A stretch of DNA of 64,000 nucleotides from an uncultured Azospirillaceae bacterium. Lineage in GTDB: Bacteria > Pseudomonadota > Alphaproteobacteria > Rickettsiales > UBA3002. Location: contig CAZMBI010000003.1 of assembly GCA_964564675.1 (NCBI GenBank), forward strand, positions 6,033 to 70,032, in the 5' to 3' direction. How positions within the stretch are numbered: the stretch's first letter is position 1; every line of letters begins with the position of its first letter. The position numbers were made by a program, and so were the translations under genes. Under the pieces are notes generated by a model that saw nothing but the letters and a program-made list of their open reading frames with translations, made no database searches and had not been told where the DNA came from. This document shows positions 6,895-59,595 of the stretch, in pieces.

Positions 6895-6982
6895 GGCGAT
6901 GTGTTCTCAGTGGATGATGCGCAAAACACCGATTATATGACGCCCCCTTCCAGCGGCTCGGCTGCGCGGAGCGCACCTCCAC

Positions 6983-7004
6983 CTCCTCCCTTAAAGGGGA
7001 GGAG
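6983..7004. repeat. C-rich/G-rich hairpin (CTCCTCCC-TTAAAG-GGGAGGAG) followed by GGGAGGGGGG; intergenic member of the hairpin-repeat family
   Basis: 8-bp perfect stem read directly from the sequence, between the convergent gdh and purH genes. No flanking U-tract on either strand. Confidence 0.6.
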
Positions 7005-7061
7005 CAGGGAGGGGGGTATAGAATGTTATCACCCGTAACAATACGCTGCCCGGCGAGGCGC

Positions 7062-13264: not shown

Positions 13265-14535
13265 GCCACCGATTCCGTTTGCCCTTTAGCGTGCTGCTTA
13301 TGCCGGAGATATTCACGCGCCAGTTGCTTGCTTTCCTCGACCGCGGGCTGATCGAAAGCGTTGATGCGCAGCAATTCAGCGGCGGCGATGGTCTCCAGCA
13401 TGAAATGCATAAGTAGGGCCCCCATAGTGCGTGCGTCGTTGCGCGCGATACCCAGCAAACGCAGCGGCACCTCGTGCCGGCGCAGGGTTTCGATCGTGCC
13501 GTGCTGCAGGGCCGCCATCACATCGCCGATATGCACCCCGTCCAGATGTGACAGCGCCGCGATACCCTGCGCGTTCAAACGCGGGCCTTCGCCTTCGTGC
13601 GCCAAGGTGAGCAGCGTAAAACTTTTATCTTTCGGCCCGTCGAGATACAGCTGCAGCTGGCTGTGTTGGTCCACCGCCCCCAGCGCGCGCACGGGCGTGG
13701 AGCCGATTCCGTCTTTGCCGAGGCTTTCCGCCCAGAGCTGCTGATACCACGCCGCAAAATACAGCAGGCGGTCGCAATACGGCATGAGCACCGACACCGG
13801 TCGGGTGGGCATGAGCGCCGCCGCCCAGGCCGCCCCTTCCAGCGGTGCGGCATCGGGTTTTTCCAGCACCTCATCGAGCACCGCCACCGCACCTTCGCGC
13901 ATGGCGGCAATATGCACGTCCGCGGCGGCGGCGGGGATCAGCCCCACCAGCGACAGGACCGAATAACGCCCGCCAATATCCGGGTCATGATCCAGTACGG
14001 GAATATCAAACGCAGCCGCCAGCTGACGCAGCGGCGAGTCGCCGGGCACCGTCACCGCATGACAGCGCTCGCCGATCACGCCTGCGCCGACGCTTTGCAT
14101 CGCCTCAATCAGCACAAGGGCCTGGCTCAGCGTTTCCACCGTGCCGCCGGATTTACTGATAATCAGCAAATGGATGCCGGTCATATCGCGGGTGGCGATA
14201 AACTGCTCGATGGTCTGCGGATCGACATTATCTAAAAACCACACGGGATAGTCGCCGCTATTAAGCTGGCAGGCGGTCTGCCCGCCGAGGCTGGAGCCGC
14301 CGGTTCCCAGCACGATAAGTCCCGTGCTGCGCTCGCGGATCTGGCGCGCGATGGTCAGGCATTGTTCGGTATCGGCCAGATCATATTGCAGTGACAGCAG
14401 CGGCAAACGTTTGCTGTCGCGCGCCTCGCGGATGGTTTGCTGAATGGCGGGAAATGCCGCGCGATATCCATCCCGGCGCGACTGTTCCTGGGCGCTGAGA
14501 TGCGCGATATTGTGAAACTCCTGGGTATATGTCAT
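13261..14535 (-). CDS. pgi: glucose-6-phosphate isomerase (short bacterial type)
   Basis: 424 aa with SIS-domain motifs [18 protein letters not shown] and GGRYSVLS, plus DQHSQLQLY. Confidence 0.85.
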
Positions 14536-15923
14536 GGGCTTGTCTGCTCCTGCTGCGGGTTTTCAGCTGGCGGTTCATCGGCCTGACCGGTTTGTACAAT
14601 GATCAATTTTTCCAGCTGAATCAAGCGTTTTGCCGCGCGGTTGACCGCCTCAAGCGTAACCGCCTCAAAATAGGCGTTGCGTTTGTTCAAATAGTCTTTG
14701 CCCAGATCATACAGCTGCATCCCGATCAGGTAATGGGCGATGCTGTCATTGTTATCAATCGCCAGCGGAAAGGAGCCGGTGATAAACCCTTTGGCCTGCT
14801 TGAGTTCGGCTTCGGTGGCGCCGTCAACCGCCAGCTCGTGCAGGGTTTGCCTGGTGGTTTCCAGCGCGCGAGGGGCATCGGCGGCTATGGTGGCGAAACT
14901 GCCGGTCAATGCCGCCGCGTGCAGGCTGGTATCCAGATCGGTGCCGATGTGATAGCTCAAGCCCTGCTCTTTGCGGACCGCTTCGCCCAAACGCGAGGTC
15001 AGCGTCATCCCGCCAAGAATCTGGTTCATCACATAGGCGGCATAAAAATCCGCATCAGCGCGCGCGACACCACCGGAGCCGAACAGCACCACGCGCTGCG
15101 GAATCTGCATGGCGATGGTCTGGTCGGTGCCCACGTCGGAGACGGCGGTGTCCTCAATGGGCTGCTCCGGCCGGAAGCGCGCCGGCAGACCGGCGAGATG
15201 GGATTCCATCAGATGCGCCAGAGTGTCGGCATCAATCGCACCGGCGACGGCCATCACTGCGTTTTCCCGCGTCAGGTAGCGCGTGCGGAACTGGTGCAGT
15301 GCCGGCGGTGTGATTGCTTTGATGCCGGCTGTCGTACCCAGCGGCGGATTGGCATACGGATGCTCGCCATAAGCCAGCCGGTTCCATTGCAGCTGGCCGC
15401 GATAATACGGTGATTCCTGTGCGCGGCGCAGACTGCTCAGCGCCCGCGCGCGGGCATTTTCCAGGCGCTCCGGCGCAAAGCGCGGCCGCTGCAGCACATC
15501 GCCCAGCAGGGCGAAAGCCGCATCCTGATGGTCGCTGAGGGTTTGCATATGCACGCTCAGACTGTCGCGCGCGGCATCGGTGCGCAATCGGATGGCGCGC
15601 GATTCCAGCGCTTTGGCGAAAGCCTGCTGGTCGCGCGCGCCGGCGCCTTTGGTCAGCATCTCAGCAACCAGCCCGGCGCGCCCATAAAACGGGGCTGCAT
15701 CGCTGGCGGTGCCGGCGTCACGAAAGACCATGCGCACGGTCAGCGCCGGAATGTGATGATCTTCGACCAGCCAGGCGGTCAGCCCGCCGGCGCGCACTTC
15801 CTGAACCGTCACGTCCGCTGTGGCCGCGCCCGCCATCGTCATCATGGCAAGGCACACCCACCATTTATGGTACCGCAGGCGCATCGGCTTCCTCTTGAGC
15901 GGTTGATTGAGCGGTTGGATCAT
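14532..15923 (-). CDS. M16 (pitrilysin) family peptidase, non-catalytic-like subunit
   Basis: 463 aa with an M16 fold-like sequence but no HxxEH zinc motif. It has a signal-peptide-like N-terminus. An alternative ATG at 15884 (MRLRYHKWWVCLAMMTMAGAATA) is equally plausible. Confidence 0.75.
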   Translation of the reverse strand: MIQPLNQPLKRKPMRLRYHKWWVCLAMMTMAGAATADVTVQEVRAGGLTAWLVEDHHIPALTVRMVFRDAGTASDAAPFYGRAGLVAEMLTKGAGARDQQAFAKALESRAIRLRTDAARDSLSVHMQTLSDHQDAAFALLGDVLQRPRFAPERLENARARALSSLRRAQESPYYRGQLQWNRLAYGEHPYANPPLGTTAGIKAITPPALHQFRTRYLTRENAVMAVAGAIDADTLAHLMESHLAGLPARFRPEQPIEDTAVSDVGTDQTIAMQIPQRVVLFGSGGVARADADFYAAYVMNQILGGMTLTSRLGEAVRKEQGLSYHIGTDLDTSLHAAALTGSFATIAADAPRALETTRQTLHELAVDGATEAELKQAKGFITGSFPLAIDNNDSIAHYLIGMQLYDLGKDYLNKRNAYFEAVTLEAVNRAAKRLIQLEKLIIVQTGQADEPPAENPQQEQTSP

Positions 15924-17355
15924 CAGATAGGCGCGCCGGCGGGCTCACTGCCTGTGGGCGCAGGCTGCCGGTCACCGAACGGGCCGGCTGCAGCACCGCC
16001 CGCGCCGCGGTTTGCACCTGTTCGGCCGAAACGGCTTCTACCCGTTCTTCCCAGTCGGTGTAATAGTCCAGCGCAAGGTCGAGCATGCGCAGATGCCCGA
16101 TATAGCGCGCAATGCCCTGCAGCCCGTCGCGGGCATAAACGGCATCGGCTTTCAGCAGGGTTTTGGCGCGGGCCAGACTGGCGCTGTCGATACGCTCGCG
16201 GCGCGTGCGGGCAATGACCTCATCCATCGCGGTTTCCAGCTTTTTCAGACTGACCCCGTCCACCGGGGTGGCACGCACGGTCAATACCGCCGGGCCGCGC
16301 GAAAGACCCGAATAATACGCATTCACGGACGTTGCCAGCTGCTGCTCCACCACCAGTTCCCGATATAGCAGACTGGTCCGCCCGCCGCCCAGCCAATAGC
16401 TGAGCACTTCAAGCGGCAGCGCATGCTGCGCGTCACCGTAGGCGTAACTTGGTGCGGCATAATAGCGCGTCAGGCGCGGCTGTTTGACCAGCTCGTGCGC
16501 TAACGCCACCCGCCGCGCGGTACGCTGCGGCGGCTCGTTCACCCACTGGCGCGCCAGCGGCTGCCGCGACGGAATAGTGCCATAATAACGCTCGGCCAGC
16601 GGCTCCAACCGCTCCCGCGTGATGTCGCCCACTACCACCAGCACCATCATGCCCGGATGGTAATAGCTATCATAAAACGCCCTGACGTCTTCGGCACTGA
16701 GCGTTTCGATCTCATGCATCCAGCCGATGATGGGAATACGATATGGGTGATGGCGAAACAACGCCGCACGCATGGCTTCGTCGAGCAGGGCTGCCGGGCG
16801 GTTATCCACCCGGCTGCGGCGCTCCTCCAAAATGACCTGTAATTCCTTTTCAAAGGCTTCCGCCGAGGGCTTCAGATGTTGCAGGCGCTGGCTTTCCAAC
16901 TGCATCACGCGTTCGAGATGCTCGCTGGCTATATTGACGTAATAACCGGTGAAATCGCGTCCGGTAAAGGCGTTGAGCTCGCCGCCAAGCTCGGTGATCT
17001 GTTGCTCGAACTCGCCTGCGGCGTATTGCCGGGTGGCTTTGAACATCATGTGTTCGACATAATGCGCAAGCCCCGAACGGCCCGCCGGATCATCGGCCGC
17101 GCCGACACGCATCCACAGCGTGTGGCTGATCGCCGGCACCCGGTCATTGCGCACCAGCACCACCTCCATGCCGTTGCTCAGGCTGAAGGACTCAACTTCC
17201 TGTTGATCGGTGACCGGCTTCTCGGGGGCTGGTTGCTCATCGCTGAACTCAAACAGGCCCAGCAGCAGCACCGTAAATATCAGGGTTACGATTGCAACGA
17301 GTATGACGGTGCGCATGCGGTTGTTGTATCCCATTCCCTGCGGCAGGGCGAGCAC
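15865..17355 (-). CDS. M16 (pitrilysin) family zinc peptidase
   Basis: 496 aa with the inverted zinc motif HYVEHMMFK (HxxEH) and an N-terminal membrane/signal segment. It is paired with the downstream M16 gene. Confidence 0.85.
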   Translation of the reverse strand: MLALPQGMGYNNRMRTVILVAIVTLIFTVLLLGLFEFSDEQPAPEKPVTDQQEVESFSLSNGMEVVLVRNDRVPAISHTLWMRVGAADDPAGRSGLAHYVEHMMFKATRQYAAGEFEQQITELGGELNAFTGRDFTGYYVNIASEHLERVMQLESQRLQHLKPSAEAFEKELQVILEERRSRVDNRPAALLDEAMRAALFRHHPYRIPIIGWMHEIETLSAEDVRAFYDSYYHPGMMVLVVVGDITRERLEPLAERYYGTIPSRQPLARQWVNEPPQRTARRVALAHELVKQPRLTRYYAAPSYAYGDAQHALPLEVLSYWLGGGRTSLLYRELVVEQQLATSVNAYYSGLSRGPAVLTVRATPVDGVSLKKLETAMDEVIARTRRERIDSASLARAKTLLKADAVYARDGLQGIARYIGHLRMLDLALDYYTDWEERVEAVSAEQVQTAARAVLQPARSVTGSLRPQAVSPPARLSDDPTAQSTAQEEADAPAVP

Positions 17356-27393: not shown

Positions 27394-28491
27394 ATGGTAT
27401 TAGAAGAAAAAAAACAACGCGCCAGCGAGTGGTTCCGCCAGTTGCGCGATATGATCTGCGCCGGCTACGAAGCGATTGAAGCCGAGTATGATGGTGACGG
27501 CGAGCCGGGCCGGTTCACCATCACCCCGTGGGAAAGGCCTGAGGGCGGCGGGGGCGAAATGGGCATGATGAAGGGCCGGGTGTTTGAAAAAGTAGGGGTG
27601 AATATTTCCATCGTCGAGGGTATGTTTGACGAGAAATTCCGTCGCGAGATTCCCGGCGCTTCCGACGATCCACGCTATTGGGCGGCCGGCATTTCACTGG
27701 TGGCGCATATGCACTCACCGCTGGTGCCGGCGGCGCATTTCAATACGCGCATGATCGTTATCGGGGGTGAGAGCCAAGCCGAGCAGGAGGCGAGCCGAGG
27801 AAGCCATTACAGACTCTGGTTCGGCGGCGGCGGCGATCTCAATCCGATGTACCCAGATGATCAGGATACGGCGGATTTTCATCAGGCGTTCCGGGATGCC
27901 TGCGACCCGTTTGACCCGGCCCTTTATCCGGCATTCGCAAACTGGTGCGACGAATATTTTTATATCCCTCATCGCGACATGACGCGCGGCGTGGGCGGGA
28001 TTTTTTATGATTATCTGGGGCTGAATACATTATACCCTCACCCTGCCCCTCTCCCTGAGGAAGAGGGAAGCGTTCGCTTCGCTCACGCGAATGGGGAACA
28101 AGAAAACCTCTCGTATTGGGAGAGTTCCAAACGCGATAGCGTTTCGGGTGAGGGTAAGATTGACCTTACCAAGTTCGGCAAGGGCGGCGTGGGCAAGGAG
28201 AAAACACAGGCCGGCATGGAAATTGCTGCCAACGCCGCGCTCGACTGGAATCAGGCCTTCGCCTTCACCCAGGCGGTGGGGCGCGCCTTTCGCGATATAT
28301 ACCCGACGCTCATCCGCCGCCATATGCACACGCCGTGGACGGCCGAGCAACGCGAATGGCAATTGCAAAAGCGCGGCTGGTATGCGGAATATAATTTATT
28401 GTATGACCGCGGCACCCGCTTCGGGCTGATGACCGGCGGCAATACGGACGCGATTCTGATGTCCCTGCCGCCGGTGGCGAAATGGCCGTGA
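27394..28491 (+). CDS. hemF: oxygen-dependent coproporphyrinogen III oxidase, carrying an in-frame repeat insertion
   Basis: 365 aa. Contains WFGGGGDLNP, YIPHRDMTRGVGGIFYDYL and RGTRFGLMTGGNTDAILMSLPP. It is about 65 aa longer than the HemF I recall from E. coli. Confidence 0.9.
   Translation: MVLEEKKQRASEWFRQLRDMICAGYEAIEAEYDGDGEPGRFTITPWERPEGGGGEMGMMKGRVFEKVGVNISIVEGMFDEKFRREIPGASDDPRYWAAGISLVAHMHSPLVPAAHFNTRMIVIGGESQAEQEASRGSHYRLWFGGGGDLNPMYPDDQDTADFHQAFRDACDPFDPALYPAFANWCDEYFYIPHRDMTRGVGGIFYDYLGLNTLYPHPAPLPEEEGSVRFAHANGEQENLSYWESSKRDSVSGEGKIDLTKFGKGGVGKEKTQAGMEIAANAALDWNQAFAFTQAVGRAFRDIYPTLIRRHMHTPWTAEQREWQLQKRGWYAEYNLLYDRGTRFGLMTGGNTDAILMSLPPVAKWP
28021..28240. repeat. palindromic hairpin-repeat element inserted in-frame in hemF
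   Basis: An 11-bp perfect inverted repeat, TACCCTCACCC (28033-28043) and GGGTGAGGGTA (28146-28156), encloses nested hairpins. These include CCCCTCTCCCTGAGGAAGAGGGAAG (28046-28070). The core resembles the copies in ampG and uppP. Confidence 0.7.
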
Positions 28492-30389: not shown

Positions 30390-31772
30390 TTATGATATTT
30401 TGGGGGCATCCAGCCCCACAAGCAACGCTCCCTTGGCGCGCAGGCGCCACCACAGCAGCAACGCCGGCAGGCCCATCAGTGCGGAAGCGGCGAACATGCC
30501 CGACCAGCCGATCCATTCGGCGACCAGCCCAGCCGAACCGGCGAGTGTTTTACTGGCCAGCGAGGCCAGCGAGGACAGCAGCGCGTATTGGGTGGCGGTA
30601 TATTCGAGGTTGCACAGCCGCATCATATAGGCGATGGCCGCCGCTGTGACCATGCCGCCGGAAAGGTTGTCGACACTGATGGCAAGCATCAGATAGTCTT
30701 GGCGCGGGCCGACAGCGCCAAATCCGGCATAAATCAGATTGGCCACCATCTGAAAGAGCAGAAAAGACAGCAGGCACCAGCGCACTCCCTTAAGGCGAAT
30801 CAGGCTGCCGCCGACAAACATCCCCAGCAGGGTCGCGCCGAACCCATAGATTTTGGCAATGGCGGCAATTTCGCTCTTGGTAAAGCCGATATCAAGGAAA
30901 AACGGCGTGGTGATGAAGGCGATGAAACCGTCGGGGATGCGGTAGCACAGGATAAACAGCAAAATCAGCAGCCAATAAGGATAGCGCTGCATAAAGTCAC
31001 GGAAGGGCATGACGAAGGCGTTGATGAGCCATTCTCGGACGGCTCCCTTTCCCTCTGAGGGGGAAGATTGGGGAGGGGGGTGACCGCTTGCGCCATCAAT
31101 TCCCGATAGAACGCCTCCCCCCTTCTTCAAGGGGAGGGGGTTTTGCGGCTCTCTTGCACATAGCACCGCGAGCATACCCACCGCCATACAGGCGGCCATG
31201 GCCAGATAAACGATCGGCCAGGTGGTCTGGTCAGCCAGCGCCAGCGCCCCCGCCCCGGCCACCAGCATCCCGAGTCGATAGCCGAACACCGCCATTGCCG
31301 CGCCCTCGCCATATTGCCGGGGCTCAAGATATTCGGCGCGGAAGGCATCGATCACCACATCCTGACTGGCGGAGAAAAAGGCAATCCCAACCGCAATCCA
31401 GGCGAACGCGAACGGGTGGCTGCCGGGATCGGAAAAGGCAAGCAACGCCAAGACTCCCGCCAGACAGGCCTGGATGAACAACATCCAGCCCCGCCGCCGG
31501 CCGAAACGACGGGTTAAAAACGGCAGGCGCAGATGGTCGATCAGTGGCGCCCAGACGAAATTGAAGGAATAGGGAACCGCCACCAGCGCAAACGCCCCGA
31601 TGGTGGCTTTATCAAGCCCGGCATCGCTCAGCCAGGCCCCCAGCGTACCGCCCACCAGCAAAAGCGGCAGGCCGCTGGAGAAACCGAGGAACAATACGAT
31701 AAGCAGTTTGGGGTGTAAGTAAGGGGCCAGGATTCGGGGTTCAGGATTCGGATGATTTTTATTTTCTTTCAT
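30390..31772 (-). CDS. ampG: AmpG-family muropeptide MFS permease, carrying an in-frame repeat insertion in the central loop
   Basis: Starting at the ATG at 31772 (MKENKNHPNPEPRILAPYLHPKLLIVLFLGFSSGLPLLL...) gives 460 aa with 12-14 TM segments and FGRRRGWM. The track start at 31964 overlaps the upstream kinase gene and is rejected. Confidence 0.85.
   Translation of the reverse strand: MKENKNHPNPEPRILAPYLHPKLLIVLFLGFSSGLPLLLVGGTLGAWLSDAGLDKATIGAFALVAVPYSFNFVWAPLIDHLRLPFLTRRFGRRRGWMLFIQACLAGVLALLAFSDPGSHPFAFAWIAVGIAFFSASQDVVIDAFRAEYLEPRQYGEGAAMAVFGYRLGMLVAGAGALALADQTTWPIVYLAMAACMAVGMLAVLCAREPQNPLPLKKGGGVLSGIDGASGHPPPQSSPSEGKGAVREWLINAFVMPFRDFMQRYPYWLLILLFILCYRIPDGFIAFITTPFFLDIGFTKSEIAAIAKIYGFGATLLGMFVGGSLIRLKGVRWCLLSFLLFQMVANLIYAGFGAVGPRQDYLMLAISVDNLSGGMVTAAAIAYMMRLCNLEYTATQYALLSSLASLASKTLAGSAGLVAEWIGWSGMFAASALMGLPALLLWWRLRAKGALLVGLDAPKIS
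31041..31145. repeat. C-rich/G-rich hairpin-repeat element inside ampG
   Basis: CCCTTTCCCTCTGAGGGGGAAG (31046-31066), then GGGGAGGGGGG (31070-31080), then the hairpin CCTCCCC-N10-GGGGAGG (31114-31137). It encodes ...GHPPPQSSPSEGKGAV... in the central cytoplasmic loop. Confidence 0.65.
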
Positions 31773-31794
31773 ATCTTCTTCCTGAATCCCTCCT

Positions 31795-32790
31795 TTAAGC
31801 CGCCAGCACGTCTTTGAGCGGCTTGAGCGCCCGCGCGCCGAGTTGCTGGATGATTTGGGTGGCGCACAGGCTGCCCAGCCGCCCGCACTCGGCCAGCGGC
31901 ATGGCATGCACATAGCCATAGAGAAATCCTGCGGCATATAAATCGCCGGCGCCGGTGGTATCAATCACCTCGTTGGCAGGCACCGGGGCAACGTCAAGCC
32001 GTTCATCCTTGCTTAAGATCACCGAGCCTTTTTCGCTGCGGGTGATAATGACCGCATCGCACCGGCCCTGCAGGTGATCAAGGATATCCTCCCAGCTACT
32101 ATCGGGATACAGCGCCCGGGCTTCAGCTTCGTTGGCAAACAATATATCGATATGATTGGTGATAATTTCCTGAAACGCCTCGCGGTGATTGTCGACGCAA
32201 AACACATCCGACAAGGTAAACGCGCTTTTGGCGCCATGGCGCTCGGCCAGCGCGAAGGCATGGCGGACCATGGCCTGATTGTCCGGTGTGCTCCACTGAT
32301 AGCCTTCGATATAGACGACCTTGGCCTTGGCGATGAGCGTTTCGTCGAGGTCGCTGTCGGCCATGTCGCTGCCCGCACCGAGATAGGTGTTCATCGTACG
32401 CTGCGCATCGGGCGTCACCAGAATATAGCTGCAGCCGGTGGGTTTGTCGCCGGTGGCAACGGGCGTATCGAAATCGACTCCCACCGCGCGCAGATCGTGG
32501 CGATAGATACGGCCGAACTGATCGTCGGCGACTTTGCCGATAAAGGCGGTGTGGGCGCCCAGCGATGCCAGCCCGGCCAGGGTATTGGCCGCCGAGCCGC
32601 CGGATACTTCCTGGCTTTGCTCCATATGGCTATACAGCCGGTTGGCCTCTTCCGCCGTGATCAGCGTCATCGCGCCTTTTTTCATATCATAGCGTTCCAG
32701 CAGGGCATCATCGGTAAAGGCGAGAATATCCAAAATGGCGTTGCCGATGGCCACGACGTCGTAGGGTTTATTGCGATCAAGTCCGTACAT
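31795..32790 (-). CDS. PfkB-family carbohydrate/nucleoside kinase (adenosine kinase-like)
   Basis: 331 aa. Contains GGSAANT and the C-terminal anion-hole motif DTTGAGDLYAAGFLYG. Confidence 0.75.
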   Translation of the reverse strand: MYGLDRNKPYDVVAIGNAILDILAFTDDALLERYDMKKGAMTLITAEEANRLYSHMEQSQEVSGGSAANTLAGLASLGAHTAFIGKVADDQFGRIYRHDLRAVGVDFDTPVATGDKPTGCSYILVTPDAQRTMNTYLGAGSDMADSDLDETLIAKAKVVYIEGYQWSTPDNQAMVRHAFALAERHGAKSAFTLSDVFCVDNHREAFQEIITNHIDILFANEAEARALYPDSSWEDILDHLQGRCDAVIITRSEKGSVILSKDERLDVAPVPANEVIDTTGAGDLYAAGFLYGYVHAMPLAECGRLGSLCATQIIQQLGARALKPLKDVLAA

Positions 32791-44181: not shown

Positions 44182-44234
44182 CGTCGGCGCTGGCCGGTCA
44201 TGGATCGCAAGGATAACTAAATATAGGGGCGTGC

Positions 44235-44250
44235 TGTTTCACGTGGAACA
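44235..44250. promoter_or_regulatory. parS: parS centromere-like site (TGTTTCACGTGGAACA)
   Basis: It matches the 16-bp parS consensus TGTTNCACGTGAAACA at 15 of 16 positions. It ends directly on the mnmG ATG. Confidence 0.8.
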
Positions 44251-46119
44251 ATGGATAGGTTTTTTGACGTCATTATCATAGGCGGTGGCCATGCCGGAAC
44301 GGAAGCGGCGGCGGCGGCGGCACGCCTCGGTGCCGATACGCTGCTGCTGACCCATCGCCGCGATACGATCGGCGAGATGTCTTGTAATCCGGCCATTGGC
44401 GGGATTGCCAAGGGTACGCTGGTGCGTGAGATCGATGCGCTGGACGGCATCATGGGCCGCGCCATCGACCGCGCCGGTATTCAGTTTCGTGTACTCAACC
44501 AAAGTAAGGGCCCAGCGGTTCGTGGTCCACGTGCGCAGGCTGATCGCGCACGCTATCGCGAGGCTGTCCAGTCACTACTGGCAGAATATGACCGGTTACG
44601 TATTGTCGAAGATAGCGCCGAAGATATTGTCCGCGATGACAATGGCTATATATGTGGCGTTATCGGGTCAAGCACTACTATATATAGAGCTGGCGCAGTC
44701 GTGATTACGACGGGCACCTTTCTGGACGGCGTCATGCATATGGGCGAAACACAAATCCGCGCGGGCCGTGTGGGCGAAGCGCCGGCGATTGGGTTATCGA
44801 AGACCCTGTACGGGCTGGGACTGCGTATGGGACGGCTCAAGACCGGCACCCCGCCCCGCCTCGACGGCAGGACAATCGATTGGTCAGCCACCACACCGCA
44901 GCCCGGCGACAGCCCACCGCGCCCGTTTTCGTATCTGACAGATCATATCCAGGTTCCACAAATCGCCTGTTATATCACCCATACCACGCCGCAGGCGCAT
45001 GCCCTGATCCGTGATAATTTGCATCGCTCACCCATGTATTCCGGCCAGATCGAAAGCGCCGGTCCGCGCTATTGTCCCTCGATTGAAGATAAGGTGGTGC
45101 GTTTTGCCGAGCGTGAACGGCATCAGATTTTTCTGGAACCGGAAGGACTCGATGATGACACCGTCTATCCTAACGGCATTTCCACGTCACTGCCCGAGGC
45201 CGTGCAGAACGCGCTGATACGCCACATACCCGGCCTCGCCGCAGCTCGCATCATCCGGCCCGGCTATGCGATCGAATATGATTGTGTAGACCCGCGGGAA
45301 TTAAAGCCCACCCTTGAGCTCAAAGCCGTTCCGGGATTATTTCTGGCCGGTCAGATCAATGGCACCACCGGTTACGAGGAAGCTGGCGCCCAGGGCATCG
45401 TAGCCGGACTCAACGCCGCGCTGTACGCAGCTGGATCGCCGCCCTTCGCGATTGACCGTTCGCAGGCCTATATTGGCGTGATGATAGACGATCTGGTAAC
45501 ACAGGGCACCACCGAGCCTTATCGTATGTTTACCTCGCGGTCTGAATACCGGCTGACCCTGCGCCCGGACAATGCCGATCTGCGCTTAACCCAACGGGCG
45601 ATTGATTTAGGTGCCGCCAGCACTGCACGCCAAAAGCAATTTCTGAATAAAGTCGCCCGGCTTGAACACGCCCGGGCCTTTTGTCAGTCGCAGACGATCA
45701 GCCCAAACCAAGCTGCGCGTTACGAGCTTCGCTTGAACCAGGACGGGGTGCGGCGCTCGCTTTTCGAATTGCTAAGCTATCCCGATATGTCCCACACACA
45801 ATTGGCTCAGGTTTGGCCGGAGTTGCAGGATATGTACGAAGATGTGCGGGAGCAGCTGACCATTGACTCACTTTACCGCAACTACCTGGCACGCCAGTCC
45901 GCCGACATTTTGTTGTTTCAGAAAGAAGAACATGTGCCGATTCCGACCAGTATTAATTACTGGCAGGTGGCCTCACTATCTAATGAGGTGCGCGAAAAGC
46001 TGGAGACAGTCCGCCCGCTGACGGTCGGGGCTGCGAGCCGCATTCCCGGTGTGACGCCTGCCGCTATCGCCGCCATCCTGGTCCATATGCGTGCCACTGC
46101 CGCTGCAGCCACCTCCTAG
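44251..46119 (+). CDS. mnmG: tRNA uridine 5-carboxymethylaminomethyl modification enzyme MnmG (GidA)
   Basis: 622 aa with an FAD motif [16 protein letters not shown] and [11 protein letters not shown]. Confidence 0.95.
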
Positions 46120-46121
46120 TC

Positions 46122-46730
46122 ATGGACTATCAGACCTTCACGCAGCATATTGTTGTTCCACGTGGAACATTTGATGCGCTAGCTTATTATGTCGCCCAGC
46201 TGGAGAAATGGCAAAGCCGGCTCAACTTGATCAGCCCGAATACCGTCCCGGATATCTGGCACCGCCATATCCTTGATTCCTGTCAATTCTATCCGCACCT
46301 TGTTCCACGTGGAACAATGCCCGTTGCCGATTTTGGCAGCGGGGCGGGCCTGCCGGGTCTGGTGCTCGCCATACTGGGAATCCCAAACCTACATCTTATT
46401 GAAAGCGATCAGCGCAAGGCAGTCTTTTTACAGGAAATCGTACGGGCGCTTGAACTGCCGGCTACCATCCATGCGACCCGGATAGAGCAAACGCAGATTG
46501 CCCGACCGGGCGCCATCACTGCGCGTGGCTGTGCACCCTTAACGCGTTTATTATCATTAGCTTATCCGTTTTTGTGTGAAAACACGATTTGTTACTTTGC
46601 AAAAGGGAAAAATTACGCTACAGAGATAACAGAGGCACAACAGCACTGGGTGTTCCGGTGGCAGGCATATCACAGTAACACGGACCCACAAGCCGCCCTG
46701 TTAGCAATCTCCGACATCGCATTGAGGTAG
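46122..46730 (+). CDS. rsmG: 16S rRNA (guanine527-N7)-methyltransferase RsmG (GidB)
   Basis: 202 aa with a SAM motif ADFGSGAGLPG, in the position between mnmG and parA. Confidence 0.9.
   Translation: MDYQTFTQHIVVPRGTFDALAYYVAQLEKWQSRLNLISPNTVPDIWHRHILDSCQFYPHLVPRGTMPVADFGSGAGLPGLVLAILGIPNLHLIESDQRKAVFLQEIVRALELPATIHATRIEQTQIARPGAITARGCAPLTRLLSLAYPFLCENTICYFAKGKNYATEITEAQQHWVFRWQAYHSNTDPQAALLAISDIALR
46154..46169. promoter_or_regulatory. parS: parS site (TGTTCCACGTGGAACA, perfect palindrome) inside rsmG
   Basis: 16-bp perfect palindrome, a symmetric variant of the parS consensus. It encodes VPRGT in RsmG. Confidence 0.8.
46301..46316. promoter_or_regulatory. parS: parS site (TGTTCCACGTGGAACA, perfect palindrome; 18 bp with flanking T/A) inside rsmG
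   Basis: Second identical palindrome, 147 bp downstream of the first. It again encodes VPRGT. Confidence 0.8.
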
Positions 46731-46733
46731 GTT

Positions 46734-47516
46734 ATGGCACGTATCCTTTCTGTTGTGAACCAAAAAGGGGGGGTGGGCAAAACCACCACCGCCGTCAATA
46801 TGGCCACCGCCCTGGCGGCGGTGGGCAAAACTGTCTTACTGATTGATCTGGATCCACAAGGCAATGCCAGTACCGGGCTGGGGATAGACTCGCGACGCCG
46901 CCGCTTAACCAGCTATCAGATGCTGATCGAAGGCGCACGCGCCAGCGATGCTGCCGTCGAAACTGAAATCCCGCGCCTGTCTATTGTGCCTTCTACCATT
47001 GACCTATCGGCAGCCGAACTCGAACTGGTCACGATTCCCAAGCGTGAATACCAATTACACAATGCCCTGAAGGATGATCGGCTTCCCTATGACTATGTCA
47101 TCATTGATTGTCCGCCTTCGCTGGGCCTGACCACGATTAATGCGCTGACGGCAGCCGATTCGGTGCTGATTCCCCTACAGTGTGAATTTTATGCGCTGGA
47201 AGGGCTGAGCCATCTGCTTAAAACTATCAAACTCATTCAAAGCAAGTTAAACCCGCCATTGACCATTCATGGGGTAATTCTGACCATGTATGATAAGCGT
47301 AATAAACTCACCGAATATATCGAAAACGATGTGCGCGGCTTTATGGGGGACGATGTCTATCAAACCGTGATCCCGCGCAATGTCCGTATCTCGGAAGCGC
47401 CGTCCTTTGGCAAGCCCGCCATTGTCTACGATATGCGCTGTGCCGGTTCGCAGGCCTATTTACAGCTTGCCAAAGAGTTGATTAAACGAGAGAAACGCTT
47501 GGTTCAGGCCGCTTAA
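46734..47516 (+). CDS. parA: chromosome partitioning ATPase ParA
   Basis: 260 aa with the deviant Walker A NQKGGVGKTTT. Confidence 0.95.
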   Translation: MARILSVVNQKGGVGKTTTAVNMATALAAVGKTVLLIDLDPQGNASTGLGIDSRRRRLTSYQMLIEGARASDAAVETEIPRLSIVPSTIDLSAAELELVTIPKREYQLHNALKDDRLPYDYVIIDCPPSLGLTTINALTAADSVLIPLQCEFYALEGLSHLLKTIKLIQSKLNPPLTIHGVILTMYDKRNKLTEYIENDVRGFMGDDVYQTVIPRNVRISEAPSFGKPAIVYDMRCAGSQAYLQLAKELIKREKRLVQAA

Positions 47517-47551
47517 TATAGGGAATTACAGCAGATTATAGGAGCACTATC

Positions 47552-48484
47552 ATGACTGCCATGCAAAAGGGACTTGGAAAGGGCCTCTCGGCTCTGATGG
47601 GAGAGGAGTACAGCCAGACCGCACCAGAACCCCGCCCGGCCGATAGCGGCCCGCCGGACCGGCTGCCGTTAGAGCAGATCCATAGCGGTAAATTCCAACC
47701 GCGCGCACGTTTTGACGAGGACTATCTGAATGAGCTGGCTGATTCCATTGAGAAAAACGGGGTAATGCAGCCCATTTTGGTGCGGGCGTCCACCGAACAG
47801 GCCGGCATGTATGAGATTATTGCCGGTGAGCGCCGCTGGCGTGCGGCAAAATTAGCCAAGGTAAGCGAGATTCCGGTTCTGCTGCGCGAGGTAGACGATC
47901 AACTGGCGTTGGAACTGGCCCTTGTTGAAAACGTCCAGCGGCAGGACCTGACGCCGCTGGAGGAGTCTGCCGGCTATCAACGCTTAATGGATGAGTTCGG
48001 CTACACGCAGGATGAGCTGGCGCGTACCGTCGGCAAAAGCCGTAGTCACATCGCCAACCTGCTGCGGCTGCTCACCCTACCGGAAGAAATTAAACAGTTT
48101 CTGGATCAGGATGAATTAACCATGGGCCATGCGCGGGCCCTGCTTAATGCCGAGCATCCGGAGAAGTTGGCGCGCGAAGTGGTCAAGCGTGGCCTCAATG
48201 TCCGTCAGACTGAAAACCTCGTGCGCAGCGGCGGGGCAGACTATTCCCAACCGCCGTCCAAGCCGCAGACGCCTCATGGGACGCAGTCTAAAAGCAACGG
48301 CAGCAGCCGGCCGCGCCAGGAAAAAGACCCGGATATTCTGGCGCTGGAAGAAACCCTGTCCGACAATCTCGGCCTGACCGTCAGCATCCATGATCAGGGC
48401 GGGCAGAAGGGCGAGATCGTCATTCAGTACGGCTCCCTCAGTCAGCTGGATGAAATCCTGCGCCGCCTGGGTGACAGTATTTAG
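47552..48484 (+). CDS. parB: chromosome partitioning protein ParB
   Basis: 310 aa with the ParB box GERRWRAA and an HTH region SQDELARTVGKSRSHIANLLRLL. Confidence 0.95.
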   Translation: MTAMQKGLGKGLSALMGEEYSQTAPEPRPADSGPPDRLPLEQIHSGKFQPRARFDEDYLNELADSIEKNGVMQPILVRASTEQAGMYEIIAGERRWRAAKLAKVSEIPVLLREVDDQLALELALVENVQRQDLTPLEESAGYQRLMDEFGYTQDELARTVGKSRSHIANLLRLLTLPEEIKQFLDQDELTMGHARALLNAEHPEKLAREVVKRGLNVRQTENLVRSGGADYSQPPSKPQTPHGTQSKSNGSSRPRQEKDPDILALEETLSDNLGLTVSIHDQGGQKGEIVIQYGSLSQLDEILRRLGDSI

Positions 48485-48506: not shown

Positions 48507-49538
48507 CTATGCCGCAGCGCGGGCAATACGCAACACGGTCTGTGCGCACAGGGTGGCCCCGAGTTCTCCGCCCCGTTTACTGTCGCGTTCAGCCTCCTGG
48601 GTCATCTGCAGGACCCGGTTGATCCGCGCTGTATTCCAGCGCCGCGTATGCGATGCCAGCCGCGGCTGATCTTTGAAGAAAACCGGCGGGCGCAATGCCT
48701 TGACCGCCTCCTCCACGGACCGCCCATGCCGGCGCATCTGCTGCTGAATCTCCCATAACCGACTGAAATGCCTGTGTAGGGCACGTAAAATCACCACCTC
48801 CGGCGTACCCTCCAATTGTAACCGGTCGAGCAGGCGGGCGGTATAATCCAGCTGGCCGGCAGCGACCGCGTGGCACAGCCCGTCAACCCCCTGGTCACTA
48901 TTATCGCCTAATACATTGCGAATCGAATCAATAGGTATGGATTGTTCGCCAAAATGATACAATGCCAAACGCTCCAGTTCGCTCTCGACTGTCATCCGGT
49001 CACCAGTGATATGCTGCGCAAGATAGGCAATAGTTTCTCTATCAACCGAAAAGCCACGCGTTTTCAGCGCTTCCTCTATATATAGCTGGCGGTCCCTGCC
49101 TTCTTCCTGATAGCAGGGCAGGGCGGCCAGACGCTTATCACTTTCAAATAATTTGCGTAACGTCGAACGCGGCCCGCACTCCTCCGCGGTGACGGCCAGA
49201 TAATGATGCATGCCAGCCTGTTCGACGGCTGGCTGAATTGCTGCGGCCAGCTTGTCCGAAGCATCCCGGATAACCACCACCCGCCGATCCCCGAACATAC
49301 TGATGCTGGCCAGCTCGTCGGCGACGCTCACCGGGTCGGCCAGCACCGTCTCGCAGGCCAGATCCACCCGTTGAAACGGGTCGTTGGGATCGGGCAACAG
49401 GGCCTGCAGGATGTGTTGCAGCCGCTGCCGTACCTGCCCGCGGTCCGCCCCATAGATTAACGCGCCAACCACCGGCTGGCCTTTATAAAGGGTCGGCTCG
49501 GTGACGAACACCCGGCTGTCACGAACGGTTATTTTCAT
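48507..49538 (-). CDS. holA: DNA polymerase III subunit delta
   Basis: 343 aa. The call rests on size, helical C-terminal domain and the conserved leuS-lptE-holA order. Sequence-level recognition is weaker than the context. Confidence 0.75.
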   Translation of the reverse strand: MKITVRDSRVFVTEPTLYKGQPVVGALIYGADRGQVRQRLQHILQALLPDPNDPFQRVDLACETVLADPVSVADELASISMFGDRRVVVIRDASDKLAAAIQPAVEQAGMHHYLAVTAEECGPRSTLRKLFESDKRLAALPCYQEEGRDRQLYIEEALKTRGFSVDRETIAYLAQHITGDRMTVESELERLALYHFGEQSIPIDSIRNVLGDNSDQGVDGLCHAVAAGQLDYTARLLDRLQLEGTPEVVILRALHRHFSRLWEIQQQMRRHGRSVEEAVKALRPPVFFKDQPRLASHTRRWNTARINRVLQMTQEAERDSKRGGELGATLCAQTVLRIARAAA

Positions 49539-50050
49539 GTGCGTCCACGCTCACGCGCCATCAGTGCACTGATACGCAGTTTATAATCCTCCGCCAGTTC
49601 GACGACGACACGTCTCAGCGCATCCTGCTGGGCAACAAAGGTCGAATAGTCATTGTCTTCAGAGACGTTATAATTGACCTGACGGCGGACTTCGCCTTCG
49701 GCGATCACTGTATCGTCCGCCATGCGGGTGAGGGTATAGGGCGAAGTGATGGTGATGCGGTAACGCGAGGCGGTACCGTCGGGCTCGATAATGAACGGCT
49801 CAGACTGGCTTTGTATGGCGATTTTAAGCATAAAATCGAGTGGGGTGCTACGTGACTCCGGATTGAGGTGATCAAGTAACTCAGCGCGCAACAATTCGCC
49901 TTCACGCCCCACCGGGGTACTGATCTGAACACCGTTGAGGGCATCGCGAATGTCATAACGCTGCGGGTTATCGGCATAAATCGGCTGAAACCCGCAACCC
50001 ACCAGCCATAACGGCAAAAGGATTATCCCCCATATAGCCCGTGCTTTCAT
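49535..50050 (-). CDS. lptE: LPS-assembly lipoprotein LptE
   Basis: 171 aa with lipobox LWLVGCG, immediately downstream of leuS with 4-bp overlaps. Confidence 0.7.
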
Positions 50051-58263: not shown

Positions 58264-59148
58264 CTAAACCGCTTCCGCGCCGGAAATGATCTCAATCAGT
58301 TCTTTCGTAATGGCCGCTTGTCTAGTGCGGTTATATTGCAGCGTCAACCGATCGATCATCTCACCGGCGTTGCGGGTGGCGTTGTCCATCGCAGTCATAC
58401 GCGCGCCCTGTTCGCTGGCGGCGCTTTCAAGCAGCGACTTGAAAATCTGCATAGACAGATTGCGTGGGAGCAGATCGGCGAGAATGGTGGCTTCATCCGG
58501 CTCATATTCATACGGCACAGCTTCGGTCCGGCCGGCCTGCTCGACTGGTGTGTCCAGCGTCAGCGGAATGAGTTGCTGCCAGGTGACCACTTGCGCGATG
58601 ACGGATTTGAAATGGTTATACACCACCCAGCAGACATCATACGACTCGGTTTCATACAGCGCGACCACCTGTTCGCCGATACGCTCGGCCGTCTCATACC
58701 CCAAATTTTTACGCCCCACGTCGCTGATCTGGCCGACAATCGCCTCGCCGTATTCGCCTTTGAGCAGATCATAGCCCTTGCGTCCGACGCAAAACAGCCG
58801 GACATCCTTGCCTTCCGCATGCAGCGCTTTGATCTTCTGGCGCACCGAGCGCACGATACTGCTGTTAAACGCGCCGCACAGCCCGCGGTCAGCCGTGGCC
58901 ACAATAATCAGGTGTTTGTCGGAGCTGCCCGTGCCGCGCATCAGCAGCGGCGCCTGATCCATATTGTCAATCCCGGCGCTCAGGGACTGCACCATCCCCT
59001 CCATACGCTCGGCATAGGGCCGTGCGGCTTCCGCTGCCTCGCGCGCGCGGCGCAGCTTGGCCGCTGCCACCATCTTCATCGCTTTGGTGATTTTCTGCGT
59101 ATTTTTAACCGACCCGATGCGGTTTTTTAGATCCTTGAGGCTGGGCAT
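58264..59148 (-). CDS. atpG: F0F1 ATP synthase subunit gamma
   Basis: 294 aa. Contains [35 protein letters not shown] and the C-terminal [14 protein letters not shown]. Confidence 0.95.
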
Positions 59149-59157
59149 GCCACTCCC

Positions 59158-59189
59158 GAAGTTACGAAATTACGAAGTCACGTAGTCAC
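59158..59189. repeat. tandem octamer array GAAGTTAC GAAATTAC GAAGTCAC GTAGTCAC (arm 1 of an inverted pair)
   Basis: Read directly from the sequence. It is the reverse complement of the array at 59566-59589. It spans the stop codon of the four-helix-bundle ORF and abuts the atpG Shine-Dalgarno sequence. Confidence 0.85.
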
Positions 59190-59595
59190 GAATTTTATAC
59201 AACATGCGTTGCACCTTATCGTAACCATCGTTGAAGGTTAACCATTGAGCGTCGGTAATATAACCAAGCTCCTTACAATAATCCAGCCACACCTGGGTTT
59301 CATACGCAGAACCCAGCGCCAGCATCATAAAACGGTTGAATTCGGGTCTGGAATATTGCTGCCGTCCAAACCCTTCCGCAATATTGGCGCAGATACTTTT
59401 GCTGGAGCGACGAATTTGATCGCTTAACGCATATCGCTCTTCTTTCGGAAATTGATGAGAAAGCGCATGCAACTCAAGTGATAATGAAAATGCCTCTTTA
59501 TATACATTTAAATCACGGAAATGCGCAACAAACGACGCAGATCTGCTTTCTGCAAATCCCTCCGCGTGACTTCGTGACTTCGTGACTTCGAGCAT
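59170..59595 (-). CDS. four-helix-bundle protein (23S rRNA intervening-sequence protein family)
   Basis: 141 aa. FRDLNVYKEAF...FPKEERYALSDQIRRSSKSICANIAEGFGR...GSAYETQVWLDYCKELGYI matches my memory of the family consensus. One sampled line gives about 40% GC. Confidence 0.8.
   Translation of the reverse strand: MLEVTKSRSHAEGFAESRSASFVAHFRDLNVYKEAFSLSLELHALSHQFPKEERYALSDQIRRSSKSICANIAEGFGRQQYSRPEFNRFMMLALGSAYETQVWLDYCKELGYITDAQWLTFNDGYDKVQRMLYKIRDYVTS
59566..59589. repeat. tandem octamer array GTGACTTC x3, perfect (arm 2 of the inverted pair)
   Basis: Read directly from the sequence. It lies inside codons 3-10 of the four-helix-bundle ORF, 14 nt from the atpA stop. Confidence 0.85.

Follow-up and report, generated by a model that had tools for sequence, protein, structure and literature searches.

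A palindromic repeat, probably of the BoxC/PIT type, lying in frame within the hemF gene of an uncultured alphaproteobacterium

Described palindromic repeats and the hemF locus

Among the described palindromic repeats, BoxC is the one closest to the element presented here, a self-complementary segment of 124 nt that lies in frame within hemF, the gene for oxygen-dependent coproporphyrinogen III oxidase, in a 64-kb stretch of DNA (hereafter the window) from an uncultured alphaproteobacterium. BoxC was later called the PIT element and, later still, the TMECO intrastrand triplex motif (PMC4666352), and its literature runs from Bachellier et al. in the 1990s to Hoyne et al. 2000 and Holder et al. 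2015 (PMC4666352). The pattern given by Holder et al. reads 5'-CCCTCNCCC N3-6 GGGNGAGGG N3 GGGNGAGGG-3', with one mismatch (one mismatched triplet) tolerated, and 3610 copies of the motif were counted across 262 proteobacterial genomes (PMC4666352). The 23 copies in E. coli K-12 all lie between genes, 10 of them in an inverted-pair configuration; the motif has no association with transposons, phages or plasmids, the sequence around it is reported to be locally unstable, and triplexes of the pyrimidine type are possible in RNA (PMC4666352). In the summary that the same paper gives of earlier work, PIT elements had neither promoter nor terminator activity and left polymerases unaffected in vivo (PMC4666352).

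Small repeats that insert in frame into genes are, on the other hand, a recognised phenomenon (reviewed in PMC3184786). Fusions of this kind to open reading frames (ORFs) are described for ERIC/RU-type, Correia and BOX elements and for the Coxiella QMITEs (PMC3184786, PMC2229807, PMC5896051), and the Rickettsia palindromic elements (RPE) were reported by Ogata et al. 2000, as cited in PMC3184786.

The element in hemF and its likeness to BoxC

The segment 28033-28156 of the window is probably a BoxC/PIT/'TM'-type palindromic repeat, carried as a tolerated passenger in a surface loop of HemF (Table 1). To judge from its pattern and its blastn matches, the left arm is a member of the BoxC/PIT/TMECO family. 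The minus strand at 28035-28067 fits the TMECO pattern with one substitution, located in block 1 (CCCTCTTCC), and CCCTCACCC of the left arm is the third block of the motif. In randomised 64-kb sequence the pattern was found in none of 100 shuffles (up to 2 substitutions) and in none of 30 first-order Markov sequences (Markov-1; up to 4 substitutions). Furthermore, TA precedes the motif and AA follows GGGAGAGGG, in agreement with copies elsewhere. In blastn searches against E. coli genomes and plasmids the match was limited to the first ~47 nt of the element, BoxC sites being matched in 4313 of 5426 E. coli genomes at a median of 3 places per genome; the same ~47 nt also match Klebsiella, Enterobacter, Aeromonas, Azospirillum, Rhizobium and cyanobacterial replicons. 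The corresponding sequences read TACCCTCACCCTAACCCTCTCCCTAAGGGAGAGGGAAC in the E. coli pepA-holC spacer and CCCTCACCCTGACCCTCTCCCCGGAGGGAGAGGGAA in the Azospirillum spacer. The general layout is shared as well, since E. coli TMECO sites 17 and 18, in the lldD-trmL spacer, consist of an antisense motif, a spacer and a sense motif over 129 bp, as in hemF.

Table 1. Position of the features in and around the hemF element (coordinates of the window).
Feature	Position	Strand	Basis
hemF, oxygen-dependent coproporphyrinogen III oxidase, 365 aa, intact	27394..28491	+	ORF, Pfam, NCBIfam, dN/dS, AlphaFold2 core
Second, smaller lineage-specific hemF segment, residues 126-139 (ESQAEQEASRGSHY), at another hot spot	27769..27810	+	orthologue comparison
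Self-complementary 124-nt element, in frame = residues 214-255 (YPHPAPLPEEEGSVRFAHANGEQENLSYWESSKRDSVSGEG)	28033..28156	.	fold z, orthologue comparison, pLDDT
Left arm of perfect 11-bp terminal inverted repeat (TA + CCCTCACCC)	28033..28043	+	repeat search; start of E. coli pepA-holC BoxC identical (TACCCTCACCC)
BoxC/PIT/TMECO triplex motif; minus strand CCCTCTTCC TCA GGGAGAGGG GCA GGGTGAGGG	28035..28067	-	pattern match, blastn
Spacer hairpin (GTTC GCTTCGC TCAC GCGAA..GAAC)	28072..28099	.	minimum-free-energy structure
Weak hairpin CCTCTC GTATT GGGAGAG	28102..28127	.	DNA fold
Hairpin AAACGC GATA GCGTTT	28129..28144	.	DNA fold
Right arm of terminal inverted repeat (GGGTGAGGG + TA)	28146..28156	+	repeat search
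Clade-conserved loop extension, residues 256-284 (IDLTKFGKGGVGKEKTQAGMEIAANAALD), outside the insert	28159..28245	+	conserved in alignments; missing from solved structures

The element measures 120 nt from block to block and encloses a hairpin-forming spacer of 38 nt (GCGTTCGCTTCGCTCACGCGAATGGGG). Folded as single-stranded DNA, 28033-28156 forms a closing stem and hairpins at 28045-28071, 28072-28099, 28102-28127 and 28129-28144, with z = -5.47 on the plus strand and -4.87 on the minus strand, a fold that none of 200 shuffles equalled. A preliminary description of this DNA, made by reading the sequence, had reported an 11-bp inverted repeat, which is indeed present and perfect (TACCCTCACCC at 28033-28043, GGGTGAGGGTA at 28146-28156), and three inner hairpins (CCCTCTCC..GGAAGAGGG, TTCGC..GCGAA and CTCTC..GAGAG), all of which were found together with a fourth, AAACGC..GCGTTT. 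Taken alone the 11-bp repeat is weak evidence, because the window holds 8 perfect inverted repeats of at least 11 nt within 160 nt, with 3.7 expected; what lies beyond chance by far is the whole fold together with the triplex-motif match. In layout and in its 124-nt length the element agrees with the inverted-pair configuration, its right arm being reduced to GGGTGAGGG and a weak hairpin. The latter may be what is left of a second triplex motif in inverted orientation, with no sense-orientation motif match at up to 2 substitutions and none for the hairpin part at up to 4. The motif has the sequence pattern of a stable intrastrand triplex and may form one, the folding given here being modelled with ViennaRNA as Watson-Crick hairpins only.

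The extent of the insert in the protein was established from alignments of 22 and of 120 close HemF homologues. Solved HemF structures align to residue 208 and resume at residue 284, with ~3 residues where the window protein has 75. Within this stretch, residues 256-284 (FGKGG...AANAALDW) are conserved in both alignments, F261, G262, G264, G265 and T271 being invariant across the homologues and G274 and M275 invariant or nearly so. At the insert site, the insert-free orthologues P0003 (loci L002 and L003) and P0004 (locus L004), each 69% identical to the window protein, have just 7-10 residues, GTQSGGD and GTQAQSGDSD, respectively. By contrast, the 80%-identical P0002, from a separately assembled metagenome (ERR1878606, contig L001), does carry an insert, placed at the same codon. 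Homology is clear over the left part of this insert (TGCCCCCACCCTCTCCCTGGGGGAGAGGGAAGCGCTCGCGATGCTCACGCAAATG), the right part differs from that of the window and is longer, and the spacer block AGAGGGAAGCGNTCGCNNNGCTCACGC is common to the window and L001. From these alignments, residues 214-255 alone appear lineage-specific within 210-284, and their codons, 28033-28158, coincide exactly with the palindromic DNA.

This delimitation follows from the orthologue alignment that the preliminary description had proposed, and it corrects two of its figures. The span 28021-28240 that it gave (z = -3.84 when folded as RNA) is too wide, since it takes in clade-conserved residues from 256-284. The ~65 extra residues that it counted between GGIFYDYLG and WNQAF are actually 75 (210-284), of which the insert makes up only ~42; the figure was wrong because an old, clade-wide loop had been mixed with the 42-residue insert. 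An ancestral loop of similar length, which would have spoken against an insertion, was not found, P0003 and P0004 being without the insert.

The host gene is intact, and its predicted product has the 365 amino acids (aa) first noted, in the ORF 27394..28491 (+). It matches Pfam PF01218 with E = 1.7e-84 and the NCBIfam equivalog NF003727 with 344.7 bits (cut-off 297). With the variable segments excluded, the ratio of nonsynonymous to synonymous substitution rates (dN/dS) of the hemF core is 0.16 against L001, 0.11 against L002 and 0.10 against L004, at dS of 0.28, 1.27 and 1.34. These ratios indicate that the core evolves under purifying selection and, because of them (0.10-0.16), that the gene is a working one. 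An AlphaFold2 model built on 120 homologues reached a mean predicted local distance difference test score (pLDDT) of 86.5, and its core compares with solved HemF structures at a template modelling score (TM-score) of ~0.8, normalised to the target.

The insert behaves differently from this core. Over 40 alignable codons, window and L001 are 53% identical in aa compared with 92% in the core, and third-position identity is 57% against 83%; dN is 0.34 and dS ~1.0 in the insert, against 0.045 and 0.28 in the core, rough figures inasmuch as the former come from 40 uncertainly aligned codons. On this comparison the insert seems to change several-fold faster than the core, and its fast change with insertions and deletions (indels) agrees with the local instability reported near such motifs by Holder et al. 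(PMC4666352). Both carriers are strongly self-complementary in this segment (z = -5.5 in the window, -6.3 in L001), the fold of L001 being owed largely to an additional triplex-like motif, CCCCCCACCTAACCTCCCCCCGAAAGCGGGGAGAG, and not to conserved pairs.

The AlphaFold2 model shows residues 209-268 without secondary structure, pLDDT falls below 50 over residues 230-251, and the coil sits between the strand 203-208 and the helix 269-279. This mapping, another check suggested at the outset, places the insert in a low-confidence coil between core elements, and the insert is probably an unconstrained, disordered surface loop. No Pfam or NCBIfam domain was matched by the insert alone at E up to 1, and the whole protein matched HemF families only. 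Rfam gave nothing at the gathering threshold on the window or on the element, where the best match was Whalefall-1 with 17.6 bits (gathering 37); a structured-RNA gene was accordingly rejected, this sole match being sub-threshold. The segment's predicted translation includes the peptide YPHPAPLPEEEGSVR, and four of the six frames are open across the element. When the 42-aa insert was compared by HMMER with 1.84 billion representative proteins, just two matches appeared, both tandem PHPSPLPEGEG arrays, which we rejected as homologous loops since they are translated motif arrays.

Related motifs and insertion hot spots

Within the window the motif has one canonical copy, that in hemF; two further, triplex-like sites are degenerate, one with 4 substitutions (31045-31079) and one with 5 (6981-7015). 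Allowing up to 3 mismatches, the 24-nt core is matched nowhere else in the window, and blastn-short found no second copy of the element in the 64 kb. The exact 11-mer TACCCTCACCC occurs again at 49726-49736, inside the ORF 49535-50050, in surroundings unlike the element, and is probably there by chance (0.46 matches expected at up to one mismatch). Copies of the core in ampG and uppP, which the first reading had proposed, did not hold: the core is unmatched in them at up to 3 mismatches, and their folding is at the level of shuffled sequence (z = 0.04 for ampG, -0.13 for uppP). Nevertheless, ampG contains on the minus strand at 31045-31079 a three-block, triplex-like motif 4 substitutions away from the TMECO consensus, of which there was none in 30 Markov-1 sequences, and uppP shows a marginal one with 6 substitutions. 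These segments are not copies of the hemF element; at most they are distantly related members of its class.

In the ampG-like ORF 30390-31964 this motif reads, on the minus strand, CCCCCTCCCC AAT CTTCCCCCT CAGA GGGAAAGGG and falls in a central loop, where the 63%-identical orthologue on L004 is ~20 residues shorter. The variant at 6981-7015, CCTCCTCCC TTAAA GGGGAGGAG CAG GGAGGGGGG, is intergenic and lies between convergent ORFs that end at 6894 and 7062; it suggests that in this genome spacers, too, contain G/C-rich variants of the triplex motif.

Outside the window, exact scans for the conserved spacer block found no match in either GTDB representative genomes or JGI metagenomes, collections that both lack the source genome. 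The named relatives of this hemF group are metagenome-assembled genomes labelled 'Rickettsiales bacterium' or 'Alphaproteobacteria bacterium', and 80 hemF loci from GTDB genomes (1.37 Mb) contained no triplex motif at up to one substitution; the motif is thus not generally common near hemF in these relatives. In E. coli, cpsG was considered as a coding-region copy and rejected: the BLAST matches overlap the end of the gene by 6 nt, and the copy is intergenic.

A different picture was obtained from metagenomes, which were scanned with the window's exact 21-mer CCCTCACCCTGCCCCTCTCCC. At least 120 stretches contained it, and 82 matches on 80 loci were examined, 64 of them being complete motifs. 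Among the 73 copies with enough downstream flank, 11 (~15%) were paired with an inverted motif, the resulting elements measuring 82-213 nt, and 6 had only the terminal GGGTGAGGG opposite a full motif; by its arrangement the hemF element would group with these last. In 20 of the 82 copies the motif lies within an open frame that extends 60 codons or more beyond it in either direction. The 12 with the longest flanks were inspected and three were tested with Pfam, and all three proved to be real genes with domains flanking the insert: isoleucyl-tRNA synthetase (IleS, L154), the HypF carbamoyltransferase (L093) and an HrpB-type helicase (L156) with two such inserts. The L156 helicase carries the translated BoxC/TM pair FPSPQSSPPRGE...PLPAGGEGQGEG twice. 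Because 3 of the 82 metagenome copies also sit in real genes, an intergenic location is a tendency of the BoxC/TM motif and no defining rule. A literature search, not an exhaustive one, found no papers on coding-region copies of BoxC/TM.

Of the 120 closest HemF homologues, ~40 carry inserts of at least 8 aa, which fall at four hot spots inside the protein (near residues 33-35, 127-138, 174 and 220-255), and the fourth of these is occupied only in the window protein, P0002 and P0030. L001 has 18 aa more in the segment of residues 126-139 (Table 1), which L002 and L004 lack, and unrelated inserts of as much as 39 aa occupy this site in 15 of the 120 aligned sequences, counting that of the window. 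Some insert peptides recur at different sites of different HemF proteins (SPKGEPERSERGGAVAGAERPP, AMSPRSGAEQSPVGDLAEQ, RSAEAARAA..., ASRASEPSAS...), and others resemble translated triplex motifs (PSPNPLPQGERA in P0080, DPHPTLSLNRERA in P0097). In-frame capture of G/C-rich repeats thus seems to recur in this uncultured alphaproteobacterial group. Across the HemF alignment (P0002-P0120), in metagenomic lineages, repeat-like peptides that recur include AMSPRSGAEQSPVGDLAEQ, SPKGEPERSERGGAVAGAERPP, RSAEAARAASGS and ASRASEPSASEAAR, which would imply further coding-region repeat families in these alphaproteobacteria.

The window holds further repeats. Three copies of a perfect palindrome of 16-17 bp, TGTTCCACGTGGAACA, are located at 44232-44256, 46151-46175 and 46298-46322 and adjoin ORFs (44251-48484) whose size and order would fit mnmG-rsmG-parA-parB. 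These palindromes resemble parS centromere sites, whose consensus, TGTTTCACGTGAAACA, is close. In addition, short tandem arrays of an 8-nt unit (CGAAGTCA / CGTGACTT) occur at 59157-59190 and 59565-59590, inverted to each other and separated by ~380 nt; the ORFs between which they lie end at 59148 and 59603. Finally, a 24-nt inverted repeat, 92% complementary, is found at 15772-15795 and 15931-15954, its arms 135 nt apart, and surrounds the junction of the minus-strand ORFs 14532-15923 and 15865-17355.

Origin of the insert and comparison with known systems

The observations that carry the identification of a BoxC-type passenger are the identity of the left arm, the potential for in-frame translation, the lineage-specific presence, the purifying selection on the host gene, and the rapid change of the insert together with its placement in predicted disorder. 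We propose that an element composed of a canonical triplex motif as left arm, a 38-nt spacer and a right arm by now worn to a weak hairpin plus GGGTGAGGG would have reached hemF in the ancestor shared by this organism and the source of L001, after the split from the 69%-identical lineages. Presumably the repeat was already formed on arrival, instead of growing at the site, and came in by structure-driven insertion or repair or by recombination with another copy, the routes we favour. It could have survived for three reasons: the net change left the reading frame unbroken, the frame used has no stop codon, and the landing site was an already extended, disordered surface loop leading from the last core beta-strand (GGIFYDYL) to the next helix. 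The segment would since be transcribed and translated as ~42 unconstrained residues of no use to the enzyme. At the DNA level it may be locally unstable and fast-changing while keeping its self-complementarity, as reported for such motifs, with selection acting afterwards against whatever disrupts the frame.

It should be noted that several observations weigh against this interpretation. The right arm, of which GGGTGAGGG and a weak hairpin (CCTCTC/GAGAG) are left, is not recognised as a triplex motif, and the motif is reported always intergenic in E. coli K-12, whereas here it is inside hemF and in frame. A second copy of the whole element or of its spacer was found neither in the window nor in the collections searched. 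There is no clean empty site, the nearest insert-free orthologues being too diverged and their loops differing by 7-10 residues, and the substitution rates of the insert are approximate, as indicated above. Moreover, it is surprising that the terminal repeat is perfect over 11 bp when the segment otherwise outpaces synonymous sites; this could reflect a constraint on structure or a more recent conversion event.

Two other explanations keep some of the evidence on their side. According to the first, the element would be a true MITE (a transposable element of the miniature, inverted-repeat type), non-autonomous, with terminal repeats of 9-11 bp, mobilised in trans by the transposase of an insertion sequence (IS) and flanked by a duplicated TA target. 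The perfect 11-bp terminal inverted repeat and the TA on either side of CCCTCACCC...GGGTGAGGG speak for this, and the size of 124 bp and the strong fold are typical of such elements. However, TA is self-complementary, so that the only candidate target-site duplication, TA/TA, cannot be separated from the repeat itself, and other copies of the motif are preceded by varied bases, not TA. The terminal repeat is nothing other than block 3 of the triplex motif, Holder et al. saw no association with transposons, phages or plasmids (PMC4666352), and there is no other copy in 64 kb, nor is the spacer present in any collection searched. We consider a MITE improbable, and its mechanism is unsupported.

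The second explanation supposes that the insert has been co-opted, either as a HemF loop with a new interaction or localisation, or as a structure in mRNA or DNA that tunes hemF through translation pausing or mRNA stability. In its favour, self-complementarity is kept in both lineages despite rapid change, the 11-bp closing stem is still perfect, and the C-rich strand is the mRNA strand, pyrimidine-type triplexes being possible in RNA (PMC4666352). On the other side, the peptides of the two carriers are only 53% identical and differ by indels, the segment is predicted to be disordered and matches no Rfam family, the fold of L001 comes largely from its different, extra triplex-like motif, and PIT elements, as far as that summary goes, were inactive as promoter or terminator and without effect on polymerases in vivo (PMC4666352). 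Such a role is hardly to be expected.

Ordinary lineage-specific growth of the loop by slippage or local duplication, with the likeness to BoxC a coincidence, would be in keeping with the variation in length of this loop and of three other HemF sites across the clade, and with the lack of a second copy nearby. We regard it as very improbable: the 33-nt three-block match with one substitution has no equal in shuffled or Markov-1 sequence, its flanking bases are those of copies elsewhere, and the segment 28033-28156 has no internal direct repeats that would account for it. That hemF is a pseudogene or an assembly artefact, for which the apparently draft state of the source assembly could be adduced, is barely credible given an intact frame that keeps the invariant columns of the 120 homologues (by construction, the window protein being included among them), the dN/dS of 0.10-0.16, and the presence of an insert at the same codon in L001, assembled independently from another sample.

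Altogether, the core proposal of the preliminary description, a REP-like palindrome absorbed in frame by a functional hemF, is supported by the motif family, the lineage-specificity, the purifying selection and the modelled position in a loop. It had named three observations that would speak against it, namely an ancestral loop of similar length, a palindromic core without other genomic copies, and a hemF that is a pseudogene; as far as these are testable, none was made, and the last is contradicted by the intact frame and the core dN/dS. Of its wording 'MITE-like or REP-like', the second half stands, while mobility as a MITE is unsupported, neither a clear target-site duplication nor a second copy having been found in the 64 kb. 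The parallel it drew with RPE is valid as to the kind of insertion and not as to family membership, the insert having no Pfam or NCBIfam match.

The identification of the hemF segment as a BoxC-type repeat would join two things that have been described separately, the enigmatic BoxC/PIT/TM repeats and the RPE-type palindromes within essential genes. Because a copy is found inside hemF, BoxC-type motifs are not confined to spacers, and they can supply raw material for new protein loops. In alignments, peptides like PHPxPLPxGEG should be read as a signal of translated repeats, not of homology, and the four insertion-tolerant sites of HemF may be of use in protein engineering; nothing changes as regards heme biosynthesis or known mechanisms. 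A wider generalisation, which we think unlikely, is that BoxC/triplex elements are pan-bacterial, transposase-free palindromes that repeatedly colonise coding regions in frame, with surface loops as a major niche in compact alphaproteobacterial genomes. If it were true, this genome would supply HemF and perhaps AmpG as examples and the metagenomes IleS, HrpB and HypF, and the four hot spots of HemF would be a natural map of the insertion tolerance of the fold; in a bolder version, the retained mRNA or DNA structure would modulate the expression of hemF.

Compared with the RPE, the hemF element is likewise a palindromic repeat in the range of ~100-150 bp, placed in frame in a housekeeping gene, with an extra peptide that is compatible with function. 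RPE families are Rickettsia-specific and A/T-rich, and NCBIfam includes RPE domain models. The hemF element, unlike them, is G/C-rich with a core motif that extends across bacterial phyla, and Pfam and NCBIfam domain searches of the insert detected no sequence relationship to RPE families. With the bacterial MITEs and other small repeats it shares its small size, self-complementarity, terminal inverted repeats and incorporation into a reading frame, and it appears to differ from them in having no demonstrable target-site duplication, cognate IS or evidence of multiple copies. The likeness to BoxC/PIT/TMECO extends to the same three blocks (CCCTCNCCC, GGGNGAGGG, GGGNGAGGG), the 3-nt loops and the flanking bases, to the lack of an associated transposase and to local sequence instability; these motifs often occur as inverted pairs of ~85-130 bp, an arrangement that the hemF element may share. 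The differences are that the hemF element lies within a coding sequence and would be translated, unlike the copies of E. coli K-12, that its right-hand partner consists of the terminal block only and its block 1 has one mismatch (CCCTCTTCC), and that its host, unlike that of the E. coli BoxC, is an uncultured alphaproteobacterium. The element brings in no new mechanism and adds one more case to a known kind of 'selfish' insertion that is tolerated.

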